A stretch of 40,605 nucleotides of DNA from a virus (Duplodnaviria > Heunggongvirae > Uroviricota > Caudoviricetes). Below, in pieces: positions 2,431-39,053 of this stretch. The stretch lies in IMG/VR virus record IMGVR_UViG_2734482545_000011. The stretch is one strand, 5' to 3'. The notes below the pieces were generated by a model. The model was not told where the DNA came from. It made no database searches and saw only the letters and a program-made list of their open reading frames with translations. A program made the translations under genes and the position numbers. Positions within the stretch are counted from its first letter, which is position 1. Every line of letters starts with the position of its first letter.

Positions 2431-5400
2431 TTAACATTCCCCCATCACGTCGCATATTTAACAGATTGCCCTGCACCCGCTGATCAACCATCCCCATAAG
2501 TGCTTTTATTGCCTGAGGGCCAATCTCTCCATTCTGGCCGTCATTTTGAATAGTGATTTGGTATACAGGGGCATAGGTAATATCTCCGCCTCCATTACCA
2601 CTTTTACTATTAATAGCTCTGACACCAAGAGAACCATCGGAAGTTCGTGTTAATGGCATAATGGCTTCCGGTCCAGCCTCACCAAAAACACCAGCCCCTT
2701 TTGCAAAAGCAAAAAATTGCGGGGAATCATAAATACCGTTCGAATACGTGCTCAATGACGGAGACTCATAAACACCGCCCTTTGCATTCGGAATAAATTT
2801 ACTAATAGCACTCCCGATAGTTCCTAAAATCCCCCCAGAAGAACTGTTACTAATGCTGTCGAAAATCCCAGTAATTGAAGCCTTTAATGCTATTCGACTA
2901 AGATCCGAAATCACGGAAGTAGCGAAAGAACGAAAATTTGCCTTGCCTGTCGTGACAAAATCACCCAGCGCATCGGTCATCCCATCAAACATCTGAGTCG
3001 TGGTTGATTTTATCTGCTCACTGATATCCTTAGTGTCATCCAGCCAGTTATTGAATCCCTGGGAGGCACCACTAACCCAGTCTCCTGCCTGAATATCGAG
3101 CTGCTCGTTTTTCTGTCTGACAATTTCTTTTTCCCGTTCCAGAGCATCATTCAGAGCCTGCATTTTCTCTTGAAAAACATGATCTGACATTCCACGGGAT
3201 TTATCTGCATAGTCACGTTCAAGTTGCAGACGCTGATTGTTATATCCATGTTCAATCCGCAGTAATTCCTGCTGGCGTTGCTGATTTTTATCGCCAACCC
3301 CATAACCAGCAATCTGAATATCATACCCCTGCTGACGATTATCAATCGAAGCCTGCAATGAATCACGCCATGCTGTTATTTCGGCGGATTCCTTGATTAG
3401 CCTGTTATTTTTTTCAATCGCAACATTTTTCTCCATCAACGTGGTTATTTCTTCCCGGTGTAAGAGAAGCGATTTCTGATCCTGGGTTAATTTCGATGAT
3501 GGTCGTGACTCTAGGTCGGCAATCCGCTGACGCCACTTAACCAGTTCCTGTTCAGAGGAACTTAATTTAACGGTCAACTCAGCTTGTGAACTTAGTAACG
3601 CATTCTGTTGATTCAGATGATCAATCATTCGTTGGGCTGCATCATCAGAATAACCTTTCGCCTTTGGTTGCTTTGGATCTTTATAACGCTCATTTATTTG
3701 AGCGATAAGATTATTATATTCTTCCTTTGAATACTGATTCTTTAGCTTTTCCAGTTTTGCAAGTTCACTAGCTCTCTGCTGCTCCCGGGTCTGATATTGT
3801 TTTGAAAAGGCATCTGCTCTCTGTCTGAGTTCAATTCCTTCCTGTTGTCGCTTGTTGTAATCGTTTATTGATGAATTTAGTACGTCCTGAGCAATTTTTT
3901 CTGCTTGAAGTACGCCCAATTGCTGCTTTAATCGTGCCAGCCTTTTATTTTGAGCTCCGCCATCTCCAATGCCACCTAACCCGAAAACTCCGGGTCGGGT
4001 ATTTTTTTCTATTTCATCAATTTGACGGAGAACATCTGAGATTTTTTGATCAAGGGAGGCCTCACGGCCAATATCCAGCATGGAATCCCATGCCCATTTT
4101 GCGGAGTCTGCGACAGCTTTCCATGCAGTCTCAAGATAACCAAGATTTTCTTTAATCTGGTTGGTGCGCTGGATCATTGAGGATGAGTATTCTTCTGTCG
4201 CAATGCGGGCGGCCTCCTGCTGGTTCCCTTCATCCTGTAGCGCCTTAATCTGGTTATAAGTCGCAAGTGTCAGAAAATGGTACTGATCATTAAGTTTTGA
4301 TATGGCACTGACAGGATCCTTTGCAATTTCATTGAAGTCATTAACCAGTTGTTCGGTTGATATTCCTGTTACTTCGCTCGTTTTTACTATCGCTGTCGTC
4401 ACTTGCTCCAGCGAACTGCTCGCTACCTTTCCCGAACGCACAAGCTGATTTAATACTGCCGCCGCAGCACCAGTTGTCGAATCAGCCGCATTCCCGGCAC
4501 GTTGAGCTATATCGCCCAATTGCCCGCTGGTTGTCCCCAACTGATTTCCGGTAAGAATAAGAGATTTATTAAATTCGTCCTGCTCCTGAGAGCCTTTATA
4601 GTAAGCCAGTCCTAAGACCCCAACGGCTGCTGCGGCCAGGGTAAAAGGATTAATTAATCCCAGCACATAAGAACCTACACCTTTGATCGCCGGGCCAATC
4701 CCACCGAACATATCTTTTAGCTGGCCGCCCTGCTGCATTAACACCATAAATGGCGACTGACCAGTGGACAACCCAACAACAATATCCGTCATTTGTACAG
4801 GCAACATGCGCATAGCAAAAGCCGTTTGTTTTGCCGACATTCCGGTTTTGCTTAATTGTGATTGAGTAACCTCAAGCTCACTCCGCATAGCACGAAGTTT
4901 TCCAGAAAGCTCCTCATACATTTCAGGAGAAAGCATCCCCTTAGCTTTTGCTTCATTGAGCTGTTTCTGTTGTTCTACCAGACGATTAAAAGCAGTTCCG
5001 ACAGGATCAAGTTGAGCAATCAGACGTTGCAAAGCAACAACCTGTTCATCATGCGCTTTTGCTGCTTCTCGCTCTGCCTGAGCCTCTCCGGTAAGCTCTC
5101 GCCGTGTTTCCTGTATTTTTCGGCTATAATTCTCAAACTGAGAACCATTTATTTTCCCGGATGCAAACGCAGCATTAAGTTCATCATGCTGTTGTTCAAG
5201 ATTTCTTAGCGCCGCAGCCAGAGGGTCGATCTTGTCCAGCATTCTTTGAAAGGCCTGAGCCTGCGCTTCCTGCTGGGCGGCAGCAAGTTTTCCGGCCTTC
5301 TCGGCTTCTCTCTGCGCTTGCGCAACCCCGCTCAATTCCTCTGTGGTTTCATTAAGTTTACGGACAAGAAATTCATATTCTTCTTTATCAATAAGCCCTT

Positions 5401-20024: not shown

Positions 20025-20489
20025 TTACTTTAAACACTGCTCGGTTATGTATTGCTGAGCACCTTCAAGTTGGGCCTGCATCATTACCAGTCGTTCCCGG
20101 AGGGTGAAATAATCCCGTTCAGCGGTGTCTGCCAGTCGGGGGGAGGCTGCATTATCCACGCCGGAGGCGGTGGTGGCTTCACGCACTGACTGACAGACTG
20201 CTTTGATGTGCAACCGACGACGACCAGCGGCAACATCATCACGCAGAGCATCATTTTCAGCTTTCGCATCAGCTAACTCCTTCGTGTATTTTGCATCGAG
20301 CGCAGCAACATCACGCTGACGCATCTGCATGTCAGTAATTGCCGCGTTCGCCAGCTTCAGTTCTCTTGCGTTTTTGTCGCGCTGCTCTTTGTAGGTAATG
20401 GCGTTATCACGGTAATGATTAACAGCCCATGACAGGCAGACGATGATGCAGATAACCAGAGCGGAGATAATCGCGGTTACTCTGTTCAT
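20025..20489 (-). CDS. i-spanin Rz
   Basis: N-terminal TM segment ([16 protein letters not shown]) followed by a charged coiled-coil periplasmic domain; downstream of the endolysin; contains the Rz1 ORF in another frame. Confidence 0.8.
20084..20269 (-). CDS. o-spanin Rz1 (lipoprotein embedded in Rz)
   Basis: 61-aa [27 protein letters not shown]... with lipobox VVGC and a Pro-rich mature part ([15 protein letters not shown]); lies entirely inside Rz in the +1 frame. Confidence 0.8.
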
Positions 20490-20983
20490 TGCTGACCCCA
20501 CAAACAGATTTCACGCTCAATCTCACGACGAGTCATGAGACCTTTCCATTGCTTACCGCCAGCATATGTCCAGCGACGTAGCTGATCACATGCGCCTTTG
20601 ATATCGCCCTGGTTTATTTTGCGAAGAAGCGTCGATGTTCTGAAATTGCCAGCACCCACGTTGTAAACGAATGAGTAAAGAGCGCCGCGCGTTGTTTCCG
20701 GTATATCGACTTTGATGTACGGGTTAATTTGTCTGGCGACAGTGGCAAGGTCTTTATTCAAGAGTGTTTTGCATTCTGCTTTGGTATACGTTTTACCGAG
20801 CATGATGTCTTTTCCTGTATGCCCGTGACATACAGTCCATACACCAACAATATCTTTGTATGGTATGTAGCTGACACCTTCCAGACCATCGTTACCACTT
20901 GGGCCAGTGATTAACACTGATGCTATAGCAATTGCTCCGCCACCAATAGCAGCAGCAACGACTTTTCGTAATGATGGAGGCAT
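20486..20983 (-). CDS. SAR endolysin (T4-lysozyme-like muramidase)
   Basis: 165 aa; N-terminal weakly hydrophobic Gly/Ala-rich SAR segment ([20 protein letters not shown]) and catalytic E-x8-D-x5-T ([16 protein letters not shown]). Confidence 0.85.
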
Positions 20984-21198
20984 TATTCACCTCTCGCAGC
21001 CTTGCGCTTATCTTCTTTAATCTTGAAATAAAGGTTTGTCAGGTACGTCAGCAGGCCAAATACCAGACTACCCAGCACACCGATTGCAGCCCACTGTGAC
21101 GGAGTTACTCTATCGAGCAACTGTAAAAACCAGTAGCCAGCACTGCCTGCGGAGGTGCCGTAGGCAATGCCTGTTGAAATTTTGTCCATGGATTTCAT
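20983..21198 (-). CDS. pinholin (phage 21 S-type), dual-start
   Basis: [71 protein letters not shown]; two TMDs; Met1-Lys-Ser-Met4 dual-start motif; GGAGGTGAGG RBS. Closely resembles the phage 21 pinholin as I recall it. Confidence 0.85.
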
Positions 21199-21302
21199 AG
21201 CCTCACCTCCGCACGGAACGGATGGCATAGTTATTATGTGTAGGCTTTCAGACACATCAATCAGAGCCTTAATTGATATATATGCTGGAGACGATGCAAT
21301 AT

Positions 21303-21324
21303 AAAAAGCTCGCCGTAGCGAGCT
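21303..21324 (-). terminator. intrinsic terminator after the lipoprotein moron
   Basis: Minus strand AGCTCGC-TACG-GCGAGCT followed by TTTTATATTG, between lipoprotein gene 1 and the pinholin gene. Confidence 0.55.
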
Positions 21325-21449
21325 AATAAAATGTATTTCTCTGATATTATGTTTATTTGTATTAGCTCAGACTTGACATCACAGGTTTCGTATATAGAAC
21401 ATCATCAAATCTGTCAGTTTGCTATGAATGAGATATAGTAATTGAAGAG

Positions 21450-21845
21450 CTAACCTCGCATGTCAAAGCCAGATTTCTGAAAATCTCTGTAGACTTCCGG
21501 ATTGTTGAAGGCCGGAAATTTGGCTTTATGAGCTGCGGACTTTATCGCTTCGCAATAGGCTTTATCACCGTTACTGGTAGATATTTTTAACGCCGTGCCA
21601 TCCTGAGAGAATTCCATATGCAACCTGCATTTTTTCCCTTTCCAGTTATGCGGCTCATCAAGTTTGGCATTAATTGCAGCTCTGATTCCCCGCGCTTGCG
21701 CCCCCCATTCATCCTGATCATCCCAGCGTCCTGAACTGCAACTACCTGTAGCAGTAGTTTTGTGGCAATCTGAAGGGTGTAAAGGTGTGCATCCCGCAAC
21801 AAAACCGACCCAAAAAGTCAACATAACGATTTTCTTTAATCCCAC
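21450..21845 (-). CDS. outer-membrane lipoprotein with TolA domain III-like C-terminal domain (paralog 1)
   Basis: 131 aa; GTG start with GAGGAG RBS; signal peptide plus lipobox VAGC; C-terminal part (KKCRLHMEFSQDGTALKISTSNGDKAYCEAIKSAAHKAKFPAFNNPEVYRDFQKSGFD) aligns with paralog 2, including two conserved Cys. Confidence 0.55.
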   Translation of the reverse strand: MGLKKIVMLTFWVGFVAGCTPLHPSDCHKTTATGSCSSGRWDDQDEWGAQARGIRAAINAKLDEPHNWKGKKCRLHMEFSQDGTALKISTSNGDKAYCEAIKSAAHKAKFPAFNNPEVYRDFQKSGFDMRG

Positions 21846-21995
21846 TTCTTGCTCCTCAATCCATTAAAATCTCAGCAATAGTAGTTGTTACGTCCGCCAC
21901 TGGCTCAGAGCTGACTATCCGCTAAATTTAGCTCAGTGCCGTAGCTGTGTCAGAACAAACCTAAGCCGAAACCGTTTATTACAAAACAATAAATA

Positions 21996-22424
21996 TCAGG
22001 GTTTAAAATCCAGCACCCCATTTTGAAATACTTTATATACTTCCGGCGAAGGGGGGGCAGGTATATCAGCATTCTTTATCGCATTCATCGCTTCACGACA
22101 TAAATCGAGGTCTCCACTTTCTCTTTTAACCTCCAGTAGAAGGCCATTCGGGGCCATATGCATTCTCAGTGTACACTCTTTTCCTGAATACTTACTCGCA
22201 TCCCCGAACTGTTTTTCGATGGCGCTCTTGATTTGATGGGCATACAGACGGATATCCTCACTAACATCAGAAGTACGTTCAGATGAACTCACATACTGTG
22301 TCTCTATTGCTTTATCGGAGTAATATGATGTACGGTCATGATAATTTGTCGATACAGCATCAGTGCACCCGATAATAATCCCACTAATAATCAACGTAAG
22401 AATTGATGCGCTACGAAAACCCAT
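21996..22424 (-). CDS. outer-membrane lipoprotein with TolA domain III-like C-terminal domain (paralog 2)
   Basis: 142 aa; lipobox IIGC; C-terminus YAHQIKSAIEKQFGDASKYSGKECTLRMHMAPNGLLLEVKRESGDLDLCREAMNAIKNADIPAPPSPEVYKVFQNGVLDFKP closely matches my recollection of the E. coli TolA C-terminal domain (...GKTCTLRIKLAPDG...GGDPALCQAALAAAKLAKIPKPPSQAVYEVFKNAPLDFKP). Confidence 0.65.
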   Translation of the reverse strand: MGFRSASILTLIISGIIIGCTDAVSTNYHDRTSYYSDKAIETQYVSSSERTSDVSEDIRLYAHQIKSAIEKQFGDASKYSGKECTLRMHMAPNGLLLEVKRESGDLDLCREAMNAIKNADIPAPPSPEVYKVFQNGVLDFKP

Positions 22425-22453
22425 TTTTCCTCACATATGTCATATAGTAAAGG

Positions 22454-22483
22454 ATTATATATACCGTTGTTTTGGACGCTCAA
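22454..22483 (-). promoter_or_regulatory. candidate sigma70 promoter of the lipoprotein moron
   Basis: Minus strand TTGAGC - 18 bp - TATAAT, about 30 nt upstream of the paralog-2 ATG (GAGGA RBS). Confidence 0.35.
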
Positions 22484-23014
22484 ACAGCGAATCAGATCAA
22501 ATAAAACGCACATTTGTTAACATTTACACAAAGTCTGCGTGGGATATTCTGAAAGAATATCCATAATGTGGAGAGAATCTATTGAAGTGCATGGTGCCGG
22601 GTGCCTCCCGGTGAACAAAATGTTCGTGATACCTGTCGGCGACAGAAAAGGTTAATGGTATCACCCCACCGCACAGGGGGATTCACCATGCAGGAGTTTT
22701 CTTAGCAAACTCACTGCGCGCCCGGCAACTCCCAACCACATAAAATGCGGAGTTTGTGGCATTTATGCATATAACTCGCAGGAATTATCTTAAAAAACTG
22801 ATGTCGATCCGGATTAAAAAGAAGCAGGTCATCATCAGATGACTGGAAAAAAGGAAAACAAAAAATACTCATCATACAGTTTTGATTGCAGGGATGAGCC
22901 TGCTATGCACAATATGCAGAATATAAGCAAGATAAAAATATGCAGGCATATTATTTCGGATCTTGTTATTAACACAACCTTTTTAATAATCATTTGGCAT
23001 ACAATAAACCAGCC

Positions 23015-23041
23015 CAAAAAGAACCGCCTAAACAGGCGGTT
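23015..23041 (-). terminator. hairpin plus U-run in the Q-to-moron spacer (T2)
   Basis: Minus strand AACCGCC-TGTTTA-GGCGGTT followed by CTTTTTGGG. Confidence 0.45.
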
Positions 23042-23360
23042 GGTCAATACAAAGGATGCTTCGTCTTTATTATAGTAATCTGAGGCGTCGGGTGTCTTGT
23101 ATCAGACAACATATTGTCCCGCTAAACAGCGAATTACAAACCACCCTGCAATGATCTCTCATCTCATTTTATATGAGTTGACGACATCAGGATAACGCAT
23201 CATCAGCCCCTGCCAAGAAATATCAAAACTCCCGCCAGCAATGTGTTATCACAATATTGTAAAAAAAACACAGCACCGAAACTATAACTGGTCTCTGTTA
23301 TAATTTGGAGCAGAAAGACCAGTTGCCCAACTAGCAGCATTCTCCCCTGCTTTCCTGACG

Positions 23361-23389
23361 TAAAAAAACCGCATTAAGCGGTTTTTTTA
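23361..23389 (-). terminator. hairpin flanked by A- and T-runs about 80 bp after the Q-like stop (T1; tR-prime-like position)
   Basis: AAAAAAACCGC-TTAAT-GCGGTTTTTTT; reads as a terminator on either strand. Confidence 0.5.
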
Positions 23390-23468
23390 CGATGTCCATG
23401 TCTGCAATCCGCCTCGCGATACAGCTTTGCGAAGCATAGCAAAATTGAAGCAGTTTATACGTAAGAAA

Positions 23469-24011
23469 TCAAGCCATTTTCTCAGCAAATGATTCACGCA
23501 TGGGAATATATAGGGCATACTCAGCAACAGCTAACCAATTAGCAATCCGTTTTTCGCATGTGCTAAAACACCACTCTGGGTGTGCATCATTTAGCAATTC
23601 AGCCATTTTGCGCTTAGTCATCCCCCGCCCTTCATAGCGTTGCCGGAGAATGCAAATCAATCCTGGATGCTCTGCCAGCACCTCACTTATGACTCGATCA
23701 ATACATAACGCCTCTGCATCAGTACAATGCGCCAGCCAGCTCTTTTGCTTGCCGTTGATCATCTCTCGCAAAAACGCTTCCAGCTCAGCTTTCTCTATTC
23801 CCGCTTTTTTCATTCTGCGCAGGGCTTCATTAATGGCTGTTTTCGTCAGTTTTTTGGATGCCAACAACTGATTGAACATATTCCCTGACCTGCCACCGCC
23901 AATATACGACCAGCGCCCCCACATACGTAGTTTTCCCTGAATCCAGACACTTTCCAGCGTGGTGAGGCGAAGGTGTTCTCCGCTTTTTCCTGTATTCGTT
24001 GGGTAAATCAT
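23469..24011 (-). CDS. late antiterminator Q-like protein
   Basis: 180-aa ORF with several Cys/His; last gene of the nin-like block, immediately upstream of the late-region terminators and lysis genes. Assignment is mainly positional. Confidence 0.5.
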   Translation of the reverse strand: MIYPTNTGKSGEHLRLTTLESVWIQGKLRMWGRWSYIGGGRSGNMFNQLLASKKLTKTAINEALRRMKKAGIEKAELEAFLREMINGKQKSWLAHCTDAEALCIDRVISEVLAEHPGLICILRQRYEGRGMTKRKMAELLNDAHPEWCFSTCEKRIANWLAVAEYALYIPMRESFAEKMA

Positions 24012-38852: not shown

Positions 38853-39053
38853 ATGGAGGTGTTCATGTATAAAATTACCGCCACTATTGAAAAGGAAGGT
38901 GGCACTCCTACTAACTGGACAAGATATTCAAAATCTAAACTAACGAAATCAGAATGCGAAAAAATGCTCTCAGGTAAAAAAGAAGCAGGCGTTTCCAGAG
39001 AGCAGAAAGTAAAACTGATAAATTTTAATTGCGAGAAACTTCAGTCCTCGTGA
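38853..39053 (+). CDS. ydaC: YdaC-like protein
   Basis: MEVFMYKITATIEKEGGTPTNWTRYSKSKLTKSECEKMLSGKKEAGVSREQKVKLINFNCEKLQSS; alternative start at the second ATG (38865) after GGAGGT. Confidence 0.55.
   Translation: MEVFMYKITATIEKEGGTPTNWTRYSKSKLTKSECEKMLSGKKEAGVSREQKVKLINFNCEKLQSS

Follow-up and report, generated by a model that had tools for sequence, protein, structure and literature searches.

Two predicted TolA domain III lipoproteins in the Q-to-holin slot of a Rac-type prophage as possible decoys for bacteriocins and filamentous phages

What do two small lipoprotein genes do when they lie between the antiterminator-like gene and the holin gene of a resident prophage? The question is raised by IMG/VR record IMGVR_UViG_2734482545_000011, a stretch of 40,605 nucleotides (here called the window) that is a Rac-type prophage of E. 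coli and that is present in identical form in a RefSeq genome. The two open reading frames (ORFs), ORF A and ORF B, encode copies of TolA's C-terminal domain. Domain III of TolA is a periplasmic hub at the tip of the inner-membrane TolA protein, and this tip is the binding target that colicins and filamentous phages need for cell entry. The region is best explained as a cassette of two genes for lysogenic conversion, placed as cargo between Q and the holin of a lambdoid prophage of Rac type. We see about an even chance that its products are decoys or dominant-negative competitors for the ligands of TolA, giving tolerance to Tol-dependent bacteriocins and filamentous phages. The two genes and their parts are as follows.

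21996..22424, minus strand: ORF A, a complete ORF of 142 amino acids; predicted outer-membrane lipoprotein
ORF A, residues 1-19: signal peptide with lipobox IIGC, then the predicted lipidated Cys20 and Thr at +2
ORF A, residues ~21-49: tether (low confidence, probably disordered)
ORF A, residues ~50-142: TolA domain III
21450..21845, minus strand: ORF B, a complete ORF of 131 amino acids with a GTG start; predicted outer-membrane lipoprotein
ORF B, up to Cys19: lipobox VAGC, with Thr at +2
ORF B, residues 20-44: conserved Cys-containing tether
ORF B, residues ~45-131: diverged TolA domain III with Cys73/Cys98

From sequence and structural models together, the identity of A and B as TolA domain III lipoproteins is near certain. 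The initial annotation had described two lipoprotein ORFs with these lipoboxes and Thr at +2, and both were found on the minus strand where it had placed them. Up to the cleavage site, the N-terminus of ORF A reads MGFRSASILTLIISGIIIGC, followed by TDAV, and that of ORF B reads MGLKKIVMLTFWVGFVAGC, followed by TPLH. The signal of ORF A consists of a charged n-region, MGFR, then SASILTLIISGIIIGC before TD, and that of ORF B of a charged n-region, MGLKK, then IVMLTFWVGFVAGC before TP; each signal has a positively charged n-region and a hydrophobic h-region, and both lipoboxes conform to [LVI][ASTVI][GAS]C. Shine-Dalgarno sequences lie upstream of the starts of ORF A (GAGGAAAAATG) and ORF B (GAGGAGCAAGAAGTG, with GAGGAG six bases 5' of the GTG). 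Given the lipobox, and Thr rather than Asp at +2, both proteins are predicted to end up on the outer membrane's inner face.

The proposed likeness to TolA domain III held in both proteins when alignments and fold comparisons were run. Both exceed the gathering score of 25 bits for the Pfam family of the TolA C-terminal domain, PF06519 (ORF A, E 2.4e-23, 82.6 bits; ORF B, E 1.3e-14, 54.6 bits), and E. coli TolA was the top match of each in a phmmer search of the PDB (E 5e-28 for A and 5e-9 for B). Residues 55-142 of ORF A align with TolA 334-421 without a gap, including both cysteines and the ...PPSPEVYKVFQNGVLDFKP end. The cysteine pair of E. coli TolA, C363/C388, corresponds to C84/C109 in A and to C73/C98 in B, and these columns are invariant in both families. 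AlphaFold models of A and B have an N-terminus with pLDDT below 50 and a domain with pLDDT of about 90, exceeding 90 over most of its extent; the alpha/beta fold with a three-stranded sheet superposes on solved TolA-III, and in Foldseek searches TolA-III structures ranked first for both, with a TM score of 0.96 and an rmsd of 0.6 A against 2x9a_B for ORF A and a TM score of 0.89 and an rmsd of 1.1 A against 3qdp for ORF B. Neither protein is a TolA in full: the models of full-length TolA matched at positions 293-386 of 387 only, and the N-termini of A and B are lipoprotein signals. Scores against PRK09510, whose cut-off is 213 bits, were 107.8 bits for A and 53.7 bits for B. Against TIGR02794 (cut-off 59.45) ORF A scored 75.6 bits through its C-terminal domain alone, and ORF B scored 47.2 bits.

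Both genes bear the marks of selection at the protein level, strong purifying selection in ORF B (dN/dS 0.08-0.13) and moderate purifying selection in the domain of ORF A (dN/dS 0.26). In the B family the tether is nearly invariant, with the motif C-[AT]PLHPSxCHKTTATGSCSSGRWDDQDEW and its two extra cysteines. This tether (ORF B residues 20-40, window 21728-21788) is under purifying selection despite its low-confidence structure prediction, which hints at a further site of binding or at a loop held by a disulfide.

The RefSeq annotation made by PGAP gives a different picture. There ORF A is labelled a pseudogene, 'tolA, incomplete, missing N-terminus', and ORF B starts at an internal ATG, which removes the charged n-region of its signal peptide. 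The annotated copies are these.

L004 20201-21007: RefSeq-annotated copy, equal to window 21450-22256
L013 5469-6275: RefSeq-annotated copy, equal to the same part of the window

Both annotations look wrong and read as mis-annotations of intact lipoprotein genes; the 'partial tolA' label probably stems from the passage of ORF A over the TIGR02794 cut-off by way of its C-terminal domain. At minimum, the pseudogene label of ORF A and the shortened start of ORF B in RefSeq need correction. The homology itself was already visible in automated annotation as 'TolA C-terminal domain-containing protein', and the PHROG to which the proteins belong, 5772, is listed with 'unknown function'.

The two genes belong to different lineages and are no recent duplicates. 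The initial annotation had called them paralogues, one of them a diverged copy, and this view found no support. ORF A is 60.5% identical to E. coli TolA-III over 86 aligned residues but only 31% identical to ORF B, which is itself 33.8% identical to TolA-III. Among cluster representatives, the nearest relatives of ORF A outside its own type are full-length TolAs and those of ORF B are other short lipoproteins; tandem duplication was rejected on the low mutual identity and these different nearest relatives. ORF B also has 88%-identical relatives on I-complex plasmids, and relatives in other genera, that occur without A. In a scan of the genome collection with patterns specific to A and to B, by which tolA genes were not retrieved, A-type proteins were found in Escherichia/Shigella sources only, and the loci examined were lambdoid late regions. 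B-type proteins are widespread and were found in Citrobacter, Enterobacter, Klebsiella, Raoultella, Serratia, Leclercia, Kluyvera and Pantoea. A dS of only ~0.6 separates the copy of B in Serratia from that in Enterobacter, so B moves horizontally, and it is a member of an older, horizontally mobile enterobacterial lipoprotein family. The export signals have been kept in both lineages. The Shine-Dalgarno sequence, signal peptide and lipobox of A persist in variants only 66-91% identical to it, with TTGC and TAGC among the lipobox variants; the B family has VAGC, AAGC and others. The +2 residue is Thr in ORF B and Ala in most of its homologues.

If these proteins intercept ligands of TolA, the surfaces that TolA uses for binding are where this should be seen. 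The phage protein g3p (N1 domain), colicin N (ColN) and the N-terminus of TolB all bind TolA-III by strand addition to beta3 (A415-K420), with backbone hydrogen bonds at D418 and K420 and a minor part for side chains, and with affinities of ~1 uM for ColN and ~40 uM for TolB (PMC4339652; PMC7391070; PMC7066135). With prolines placed in beta3, all three interactions are lost and the cells show a full tol phenotype (PMC4339652). Colicin A (ColA) binds the opposite edge of TolA, at beta2 (L375-P380), together with K368, K379 and K396 (PMC3365938), and the structure 2X9A is that of If1 g3p in complex with TolA-C. In ORF A the beta3 strand is LDFKP, the same as in E. coli TolA, and beta2 is LLEVKR; K379 and K396 are kept and K368 is replaced by His. 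In ORF B beta3 is FDMRG, with no proline at the two hydrogen-bonding positions. Among 44 positions conserved in TolA orthologues, A keeps 34 and B keeps 20. The beta3 motif L-D-F-K/R is widely retained, each of its four positions being kept in 39-47 of 60 cluster representatives of short lipoproteins.

Since A and B have neither domain I nor domain II of TolA, they would have no coupling to the TolQR motor and could transmit no force, and they would be left as decoys or dominant-negative competitors beneath the outer membrane. On its flexible outer-membrane tether the TolA-III domain would bind the same ligands where these first reach the periplasm; it would catch the epitopes by which group A colicins, related bacteriocins and the N1 domain of filamentous-phage g3p bind TolA, and it would be a competitor for the N-terminus of TolB, which nuclease colicins require. 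The cell would as a result tolerate Tol-dependent bacteriocins and exclude filamentous phages. TolA-III is bound more tightly by parasite ligands (~1 uM) than by TolB (~40 uM), so moderate levels of decoy could suffice to block invaders with limited damage to the Tol-Pal system. ORF A would act as the close mimic, with the same beta3 edge and two of the three ColA-contact lysines, and ORF B as an older, specialised relative with altered edges and an extra tether motif, probably serving a narrower or a different ligand. Both would probably be made in the lysogen from the promoter of the cassette and in larger amounts during Q-dependent late transcription.

The proposal gains from the company that such genes keep elsewhere. 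A profile search of 1.84 billion cluster representatives returned 615 clusters at E <1e-3 and 240 at E <1e-10; among the best 150 representatives, 96 were of 170 amino acids or fewer, and at least 61 of these 96 had a lipobox. Some 600 Escherichia/Shigella plasmids carry a B homologue with 88% amino-acid identity. On IncK/Z and I-gamma/K1 plasmids, which like IncB belong to the I-complex, it follows directly on the nikA-nikB relaxase genes and lies on the same strand; the pili of I-complex plasmids are receptors of If1-type filamentous phages. A second plasmid setting, of pO157 type, might have pointed to a leading-region gene of F plasmids, and this was rejected: the pO157 copy lies in 2.7 kb that are 99% identical to an IncK plasmid, a stretch that starts inside the relaxase gene and includes the B gene, and the copy is a recombination remnant of the IncK relaxase-B segment. 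Several hundred Klebsiella plasmids, of two kinds (IncFII and ColE1-type), carry further TolA-III lineages. On the ColE1-type plasmids, which are of 10,060 bp, the gene for a TolA-III lipoprotein (lipobox LTAC, then K) overlaps a gene for a signal-peptide-bearing TonB_C protein, and the pair is divergent from the genes for a cloacin-type rRNase bacteriocin, with Cloacin T-domain and E2-type R-domain, and its immunity and lysis proteins. At least 237 plasmids have this whole arrangement of TolA-III, TonB_C and cloacin genes, those listed being ColE1-type Klebsiella plasmids, and sister plasmids of CloDF13-like type have the gene for the exclusion lipoprotein Exc2 in the TolA-III/TonB_C position beside the cloacin operon. 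The plasmid loci referred to are these.

L003, L021 and L022 3965-4396: B homologue on I-complex plasmids
L002 and L023: B homologue on pO157-type plasmids
NZ_CP031718 (L019) 1512-2245: TolA-III/TonB_C pair on a Klebsiella plasmid
NZ_CP031718 (L019) 3091-5277: bacteriocin operon on the same plasmid

Chromosomal members of the B family are single genes, placed beside gpx and ridA in Enterobacter and between nrdDG and an NsnA-type defence gene in Serratia. In the Serratia locus (L009 6957-8736) the NsnA-type gene that adjoins the TolA-III lipoprotein gene has a HEPN partner. On a Klebsiella IncFII plasmid (L020 1-2394) the TolA-III lipoprotein gene lies 3.4 kb from the Gabija gene gajA, and the gene next to gajA encodes a UvrD-family helicase and is probably gajB. 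Each mobile lineage is 46-60% identical to E. coli TolA-III and 35-39% identical to the other lineages. This genomic context of bacteriocin plasmids, a relaxase operon and defence neighbours is circumstantial evidence in favour of import parasitism as the selective agent. A mimic of Tol is paired with a mimic of Ton beside a Tol-dependent bacteriocin operon, and only import parasitism links the two mimics.

In the window the pair occupies a slot whose boundaries are lysis and regulatory genes of the phage.

23469..24011, minus strand: Q-like antiterminator (DUF1133; phrog_753, E 2e-79), the upstream boundary of the cargo slot
20983..21198, minus strand: S21-type class II holin (essD), the downstream boundary, which moves with the cassette
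20486..20983, minus strand: lysozyme RrrD, with a hydrophobic N-terminus
20025..20501 and 20084..20269, minus strand: Rz/Rz1 spanins

The hydrophobic N-terminus of RrrD suggests a signal-anchor-release (SAR) endolysin. In the RefSeq genome the gene order is intR, xisR, recET, kilR, sieB, replication genes, hokD, DUF1367, DUF1364 and DUF1133, followed by A and B, essD, rrrD, Rz, trkG and the genes for head and tail. The placement between Q and the pinholin given by the initial annotation is therefore as described, with a phrog_753 gene upstream and an S21-type holin downstream, and so is its equation of the slot with that of stx in Stx phages: a 66%-identical variant of A sits alone between Q, tRNAs and an AraC-type gene on one side and nanS-p on the other, in late regions like those of Stx phages. 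The slot is polymorphic, and in a sister prophage of Rac type it is taken by tRNA-Thr, tRNA-Gly and a hypothetical gene. The pair, 1,351 bp long, is present in 773 of 5,426 complete E. coli genomes (at 80% of its length or more, and nearly always at 99% identity or more). From the holin to ~190 nt upstream of ORF A (~20982-22615) the DNA is 99% identical in a Qin-type prophage that has a different Q (PF03589) and in which the segment stands behind tRNA-Ile and tRNA-Arg. Across 80 IMG/VR contigs ORF A, the intergenic region, ORF B, the terminator and essD form a constant unit, while the Q and endolysin flanks vary; the few contigs with part of the unit show no sequence on the side concerned and are taken to end there. 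The GC content of the cassette is slightly below that of its flanks. The sequenced phage that carries the genes, mEp460_ev081 (LR597641, L001), has them at 4359-5333 in a late region that is Qin-like (cspG, gnsB and ydfR-type genes), which suggests that it acquired the cassette from a resident prophage.

The cassette carries signals of its own and lies among others.

22483..22454, minus strand: sigma-70-like promoter TTGAGC-18-TATAAT, with 10 of 12 consensus matches, ~30 nt 5' of the ORF A start
21846..21995, minus strand: intergenic region of 150 nt between A and B, peculiar to this cassette
21299..21324, minus strand: intrinsic terminator after ORF B (hairpin 21324..21307), AGCUCGC-UACG-GCGAGCU, then UUUUUAUAUU
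22535..22721, minus strand: STnc100-like structured RNA (Rfam RF02076, 86.6 bits), just upstream of the ORF A promoter
23098..23069, minus strand: candidate late promoter AAGACA-18-TATAAT, in the region 23010..23098
23041..23022, minus strand: terminator-like hairpin after the candidate late promoter

The initial annotation had given the pair its own promoter and terminator. The terminator stands, its hairpin folding at -13 kcal/mol with a z of -3.4 against shuffled sequence; the promoter is present at its coordinates as a consensus match that is not significant on its own. A comparison of upstream regions for conservation of this promoter found those of the A variants unrelated. A weaker promoter-like site lies in the A-B intergenic region (21953..21925), the folding of which is no better than that of shuffled sequence (z -0.4). 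If the candidate late promoter is a true one, transcription by Q-modified polymerase would continue from it across the cassette and reach the lysis genes. The STnc100-like element accompanies the cassette in both Rac-type and Qin-type prophage backgrounds and is found in 73 of the 80 IMG/VR contigs; it was not found in the sister prophage that has no cassette, nor in the loci of the A variants. The match reaches 114 bits in Qin-type loci (L013 6554-6744; L001 5444-5634), and in the window the final hairpin is without the U-run seen in the consensus of the family. A role as the leader RNA between pR' and tR' is unlikely, given a distance of ~750 nt from Q and, in the Qin-type locus, a position downstream of tRNAs and another gene.

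Two further RNA features of the prophage were noted. Directly 3' of the stop codon of the Q-like gene, at window 23307-23435, a hairpin of the form A7-CCGC-TTAAT-GCGG-T7 resembles a two-way terminator, and weak, sub-threshold isrK-like Rfam matches fall here on both strands; IsrK of Salmonella is an RNA associated with a prophage antiterminator. At window 38871-39049, on the minus strand, a match to RF02694 (225 bits) marks the antitoxin RNA RalA of the type I toxin-antitoxin pair RalR/RalA, as expected in a Rac-type prophage.

Several observations count against the decoy proposal. ORF B has none of the three ColA-contact lysines and has lost most of the beta3 side chains, and the B-family genes that stand singly among metabolic genes on the Enterobacter chromosome fit a housekeeping role in the envelope equally well. 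A decoy that binds TolB should cost the cell outer-membrane stability. Filamentous phages need a conjugative pilus, which makes the benefit of excluding them conditional for a prophage. Only one of 50,697 sequenced phages, mEp460_ev081, carries the genes by DNA and protein searches, so that they live mainly in resident, often defective, prophages. The promoter is a consensus match only, not significant by itself because 11 promoter-like sites were counted against 7.0 +/- 3.2 in shuffled sequences, and expression of A and B in lysogens is a prediction. PADLOC, with its defence models, returned no model matching ORF A or ORF B, and full-text literature searches found no experimental or comparative study of these proteins; those matches in Salmonella and O157 papers that were checked proved irrelevant. 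A TolA-III lipoprotein on a Klebsiella plasmid is mentioned in passing in PMC10269471.

Three other explanations of the cassette were weighed. One would have the phage itself profit from an attack on the Tol-Pal system: made in bulk on induction, A and B would titrate the N-terminus of TolB away from TolA and weaken the tie that Pal provides between outer membrane and cell wall, giving faster rupture of the outer membrane or more vesicles, with tolerance to colicins and phages as a by-product. The cassette lies downstream of the Q-like gene and the candidate late promoter and directly upstream of the holin, which always moves together with it, and periplasmic TolA-III has served to boost vesicle production. 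TolB uses the same beta3 edge that is unchanged in A, and proline mutants of this strand in TolA show the full tol phenotype (PMC4339652). Homologues are nevertheless found where no lysis occurs, in a plasmid relaxase operon, on small bacteriocin plasmids and as single chromosomal genes; the TonB C-terminal domain that partners one of them has no obvious part in weakening the outer membrane, the promoter-like site and terminator of the cassette suggest expression apart from the late transcript, and same-type prophages whose lysis genes are intact do without it. We regard this explanation as unlikely. The notion that the region is debris, a truncated tolA fragment next to a hypothetical gene in a decaying prophage, would agree with the PGAP pseudogene flag on A and the internal ATG start of B, with the defective state of many host prophages and with the single sequenced phage that has the genes. 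It is nonetheless highly improbable, since A is a complete ORF whose Shine-Dalgarno sequence, signal peptide and lipobox are kept in its 66-91%-identical variants, both genes are under purifying selection, the cassette is nearly always at least 99% identical in 773 genomes and the folds predicted for both proteins are confident.

The remaining possibility is that the fold shared by TolA-III and the TonB C-terminal domain serves as a general strand-addition module, and that B above all binds some other ligand of the periplasm or outer membrane, with a role in envelope physiology, conjugation or host interaction of the kind known for serum resistance through Bor/Iss or TraT. B shares only 34% identity with TolA-III and just 20 of the 44 TolA-conserved positions, its own tether motif, which contains Cys, is strongly conserved, and its family includes a conserved chromosomal gene in Enterobacter and a gene in the transfer region of I-complex plasmids. 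A, on the other hand, is a close mimic of TolA, and most clusters of short lipoproteins retain the TolA beta3 motif. Independent lineages are nearer to TolA-III (46-60%) than to each other (35-39%), as would be expected if TolA ligands had been kept, and import pathways are suggested by the pairing with a TonB mimic beside a bacteriocin operon. We think a different partner improbable as the explanation of the cassette, and return to the decoy proposal.

The closest known things to A and B are laboratory dominant-negative constructs of TolA-III and the exclusion lipoproteins Cor, Llp, TraT and Exc2. With domain III of E. coli TolA (residues ~325-421; PF06519; PDB 1S62, 3QDP, 1TOL, 2X9A) the two proteins share the fold and the disulfide pair, but in place of domain I, the TolQR-coupled anchor, and of the long helical domain II they have a lipoprotein signal and a tether of 20-30 residues; their domain is predicted to hang from the outer membrane, and they are encoded in prophages and not in the tol-pal operon. 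Laboratory constructs of periplasmic TolA-III or of the TonB C-terminal domain are likewise free domains, expected to compete for colicins, g3p and TolB. Levengood-Freyermuth et al. reportedly found in 1993 (J Bacteriol) that soluble TolA-III exported to the periplasm leaves E. coli leaky and tolerant of group A colicins, and Howard et al. are said to have found in 2001 that a periplasmic TonB C-terminal domain inhibits TonB-dependent uptake. Unlike such constructs, A and B are natural, predicted to be lipid-anchored, diverged, under purifying selection and spread on mobile elements.

Cor (phi80/N15/mEp), Llp (T5), TraT (F) and Exc2 (ColE1/CloDF13-type) are small outer-membrane lipoproteins carried as cargo on mobile elements, as A and B would be, and are known to block the entry of competitors. 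The likeness is functional, as proposed here, and positional only. No relationship of sequence or fold exists, and searches of Pfam and NCBIfam matched A and B to TolA- and TonB-type families only, with no homology to Cor, Llp, TraT or Exc2. Moreover, the target of Cor, Llp and TraT is a receptor at the surface (FhuA or OmpA), whereas A and B copy a periplasmic co-receptor, so that mimicry and not masking is proposed. As present/absent cargo the pair resembles the morons of the lambdoid Q-S slot (stxAB, nanS-p, tRNAs) and, elsewhere, bor and lom; it differs from those of stxAB type in encoding envelope proteins, aimed by our proposal at the bacterial Tol system, and not host-directed toxins. 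The Klebsiella TolA-III lipoprotein of NZ_CP031718 has the same architecture as A and B (lipobox LTAC, short tether, TolA_C E 2e-24) and belongs to a separate lineage, 39% identical to A and 28% to B; it is paired with a TonB mimic on a bacteriocin plasmid, where the prophage cassette pairs two TolA mimics.

These observations lead to a broader suggestion, which we hold tentatively and as rather less probable than an even chance: mobile elements of the Enterobacteriaceae carry unrecognised broad-spectrum 'import-hub decoys', consisting of a lipid-anchored TolA-III and, on some plasmids, also a periplasmic TonB C-terminal domain. If this is true, such decoys would intercept any bacteriocin or filamentous phage that docks on Tol or Ton and would give an immunity independent of the killing domain. 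In prophages they would serve lysogenic conversion, in I-complex plasmids they would shield the host from the filamentous phages that target the plasmids' own pili, and in bacteriocin plasmids they would act against rival bacteriocins. ORF A, as a near-exact TolA mimic, and ORF B, as a specialised one, would cover different sets of ligands.

A decoy role would mean that an unrecognised tolerance to Tol-dependent bacteriocins and filamentous phages, independent of the killing domain, is present in a seventh of complete E. coli genomes (773 of 5,426), on some 600 plasmids of Escherichia/Shigella and on several hundred of Klebsiella, which would bear on therapeutics based on colicins and klebicins, on the use of phage display and M13 tools in natural isolates and on the competition between strains in the gut. 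It would represent a natural defence by mimicry of a periplasmic co-receptor instead of masking of a surface receptor. The family would then also hold natural TolA-III variants that separate the binding of parasites from the binding of TolB, and these may be expected to make good tools for dissecting the Tol-Pal system.

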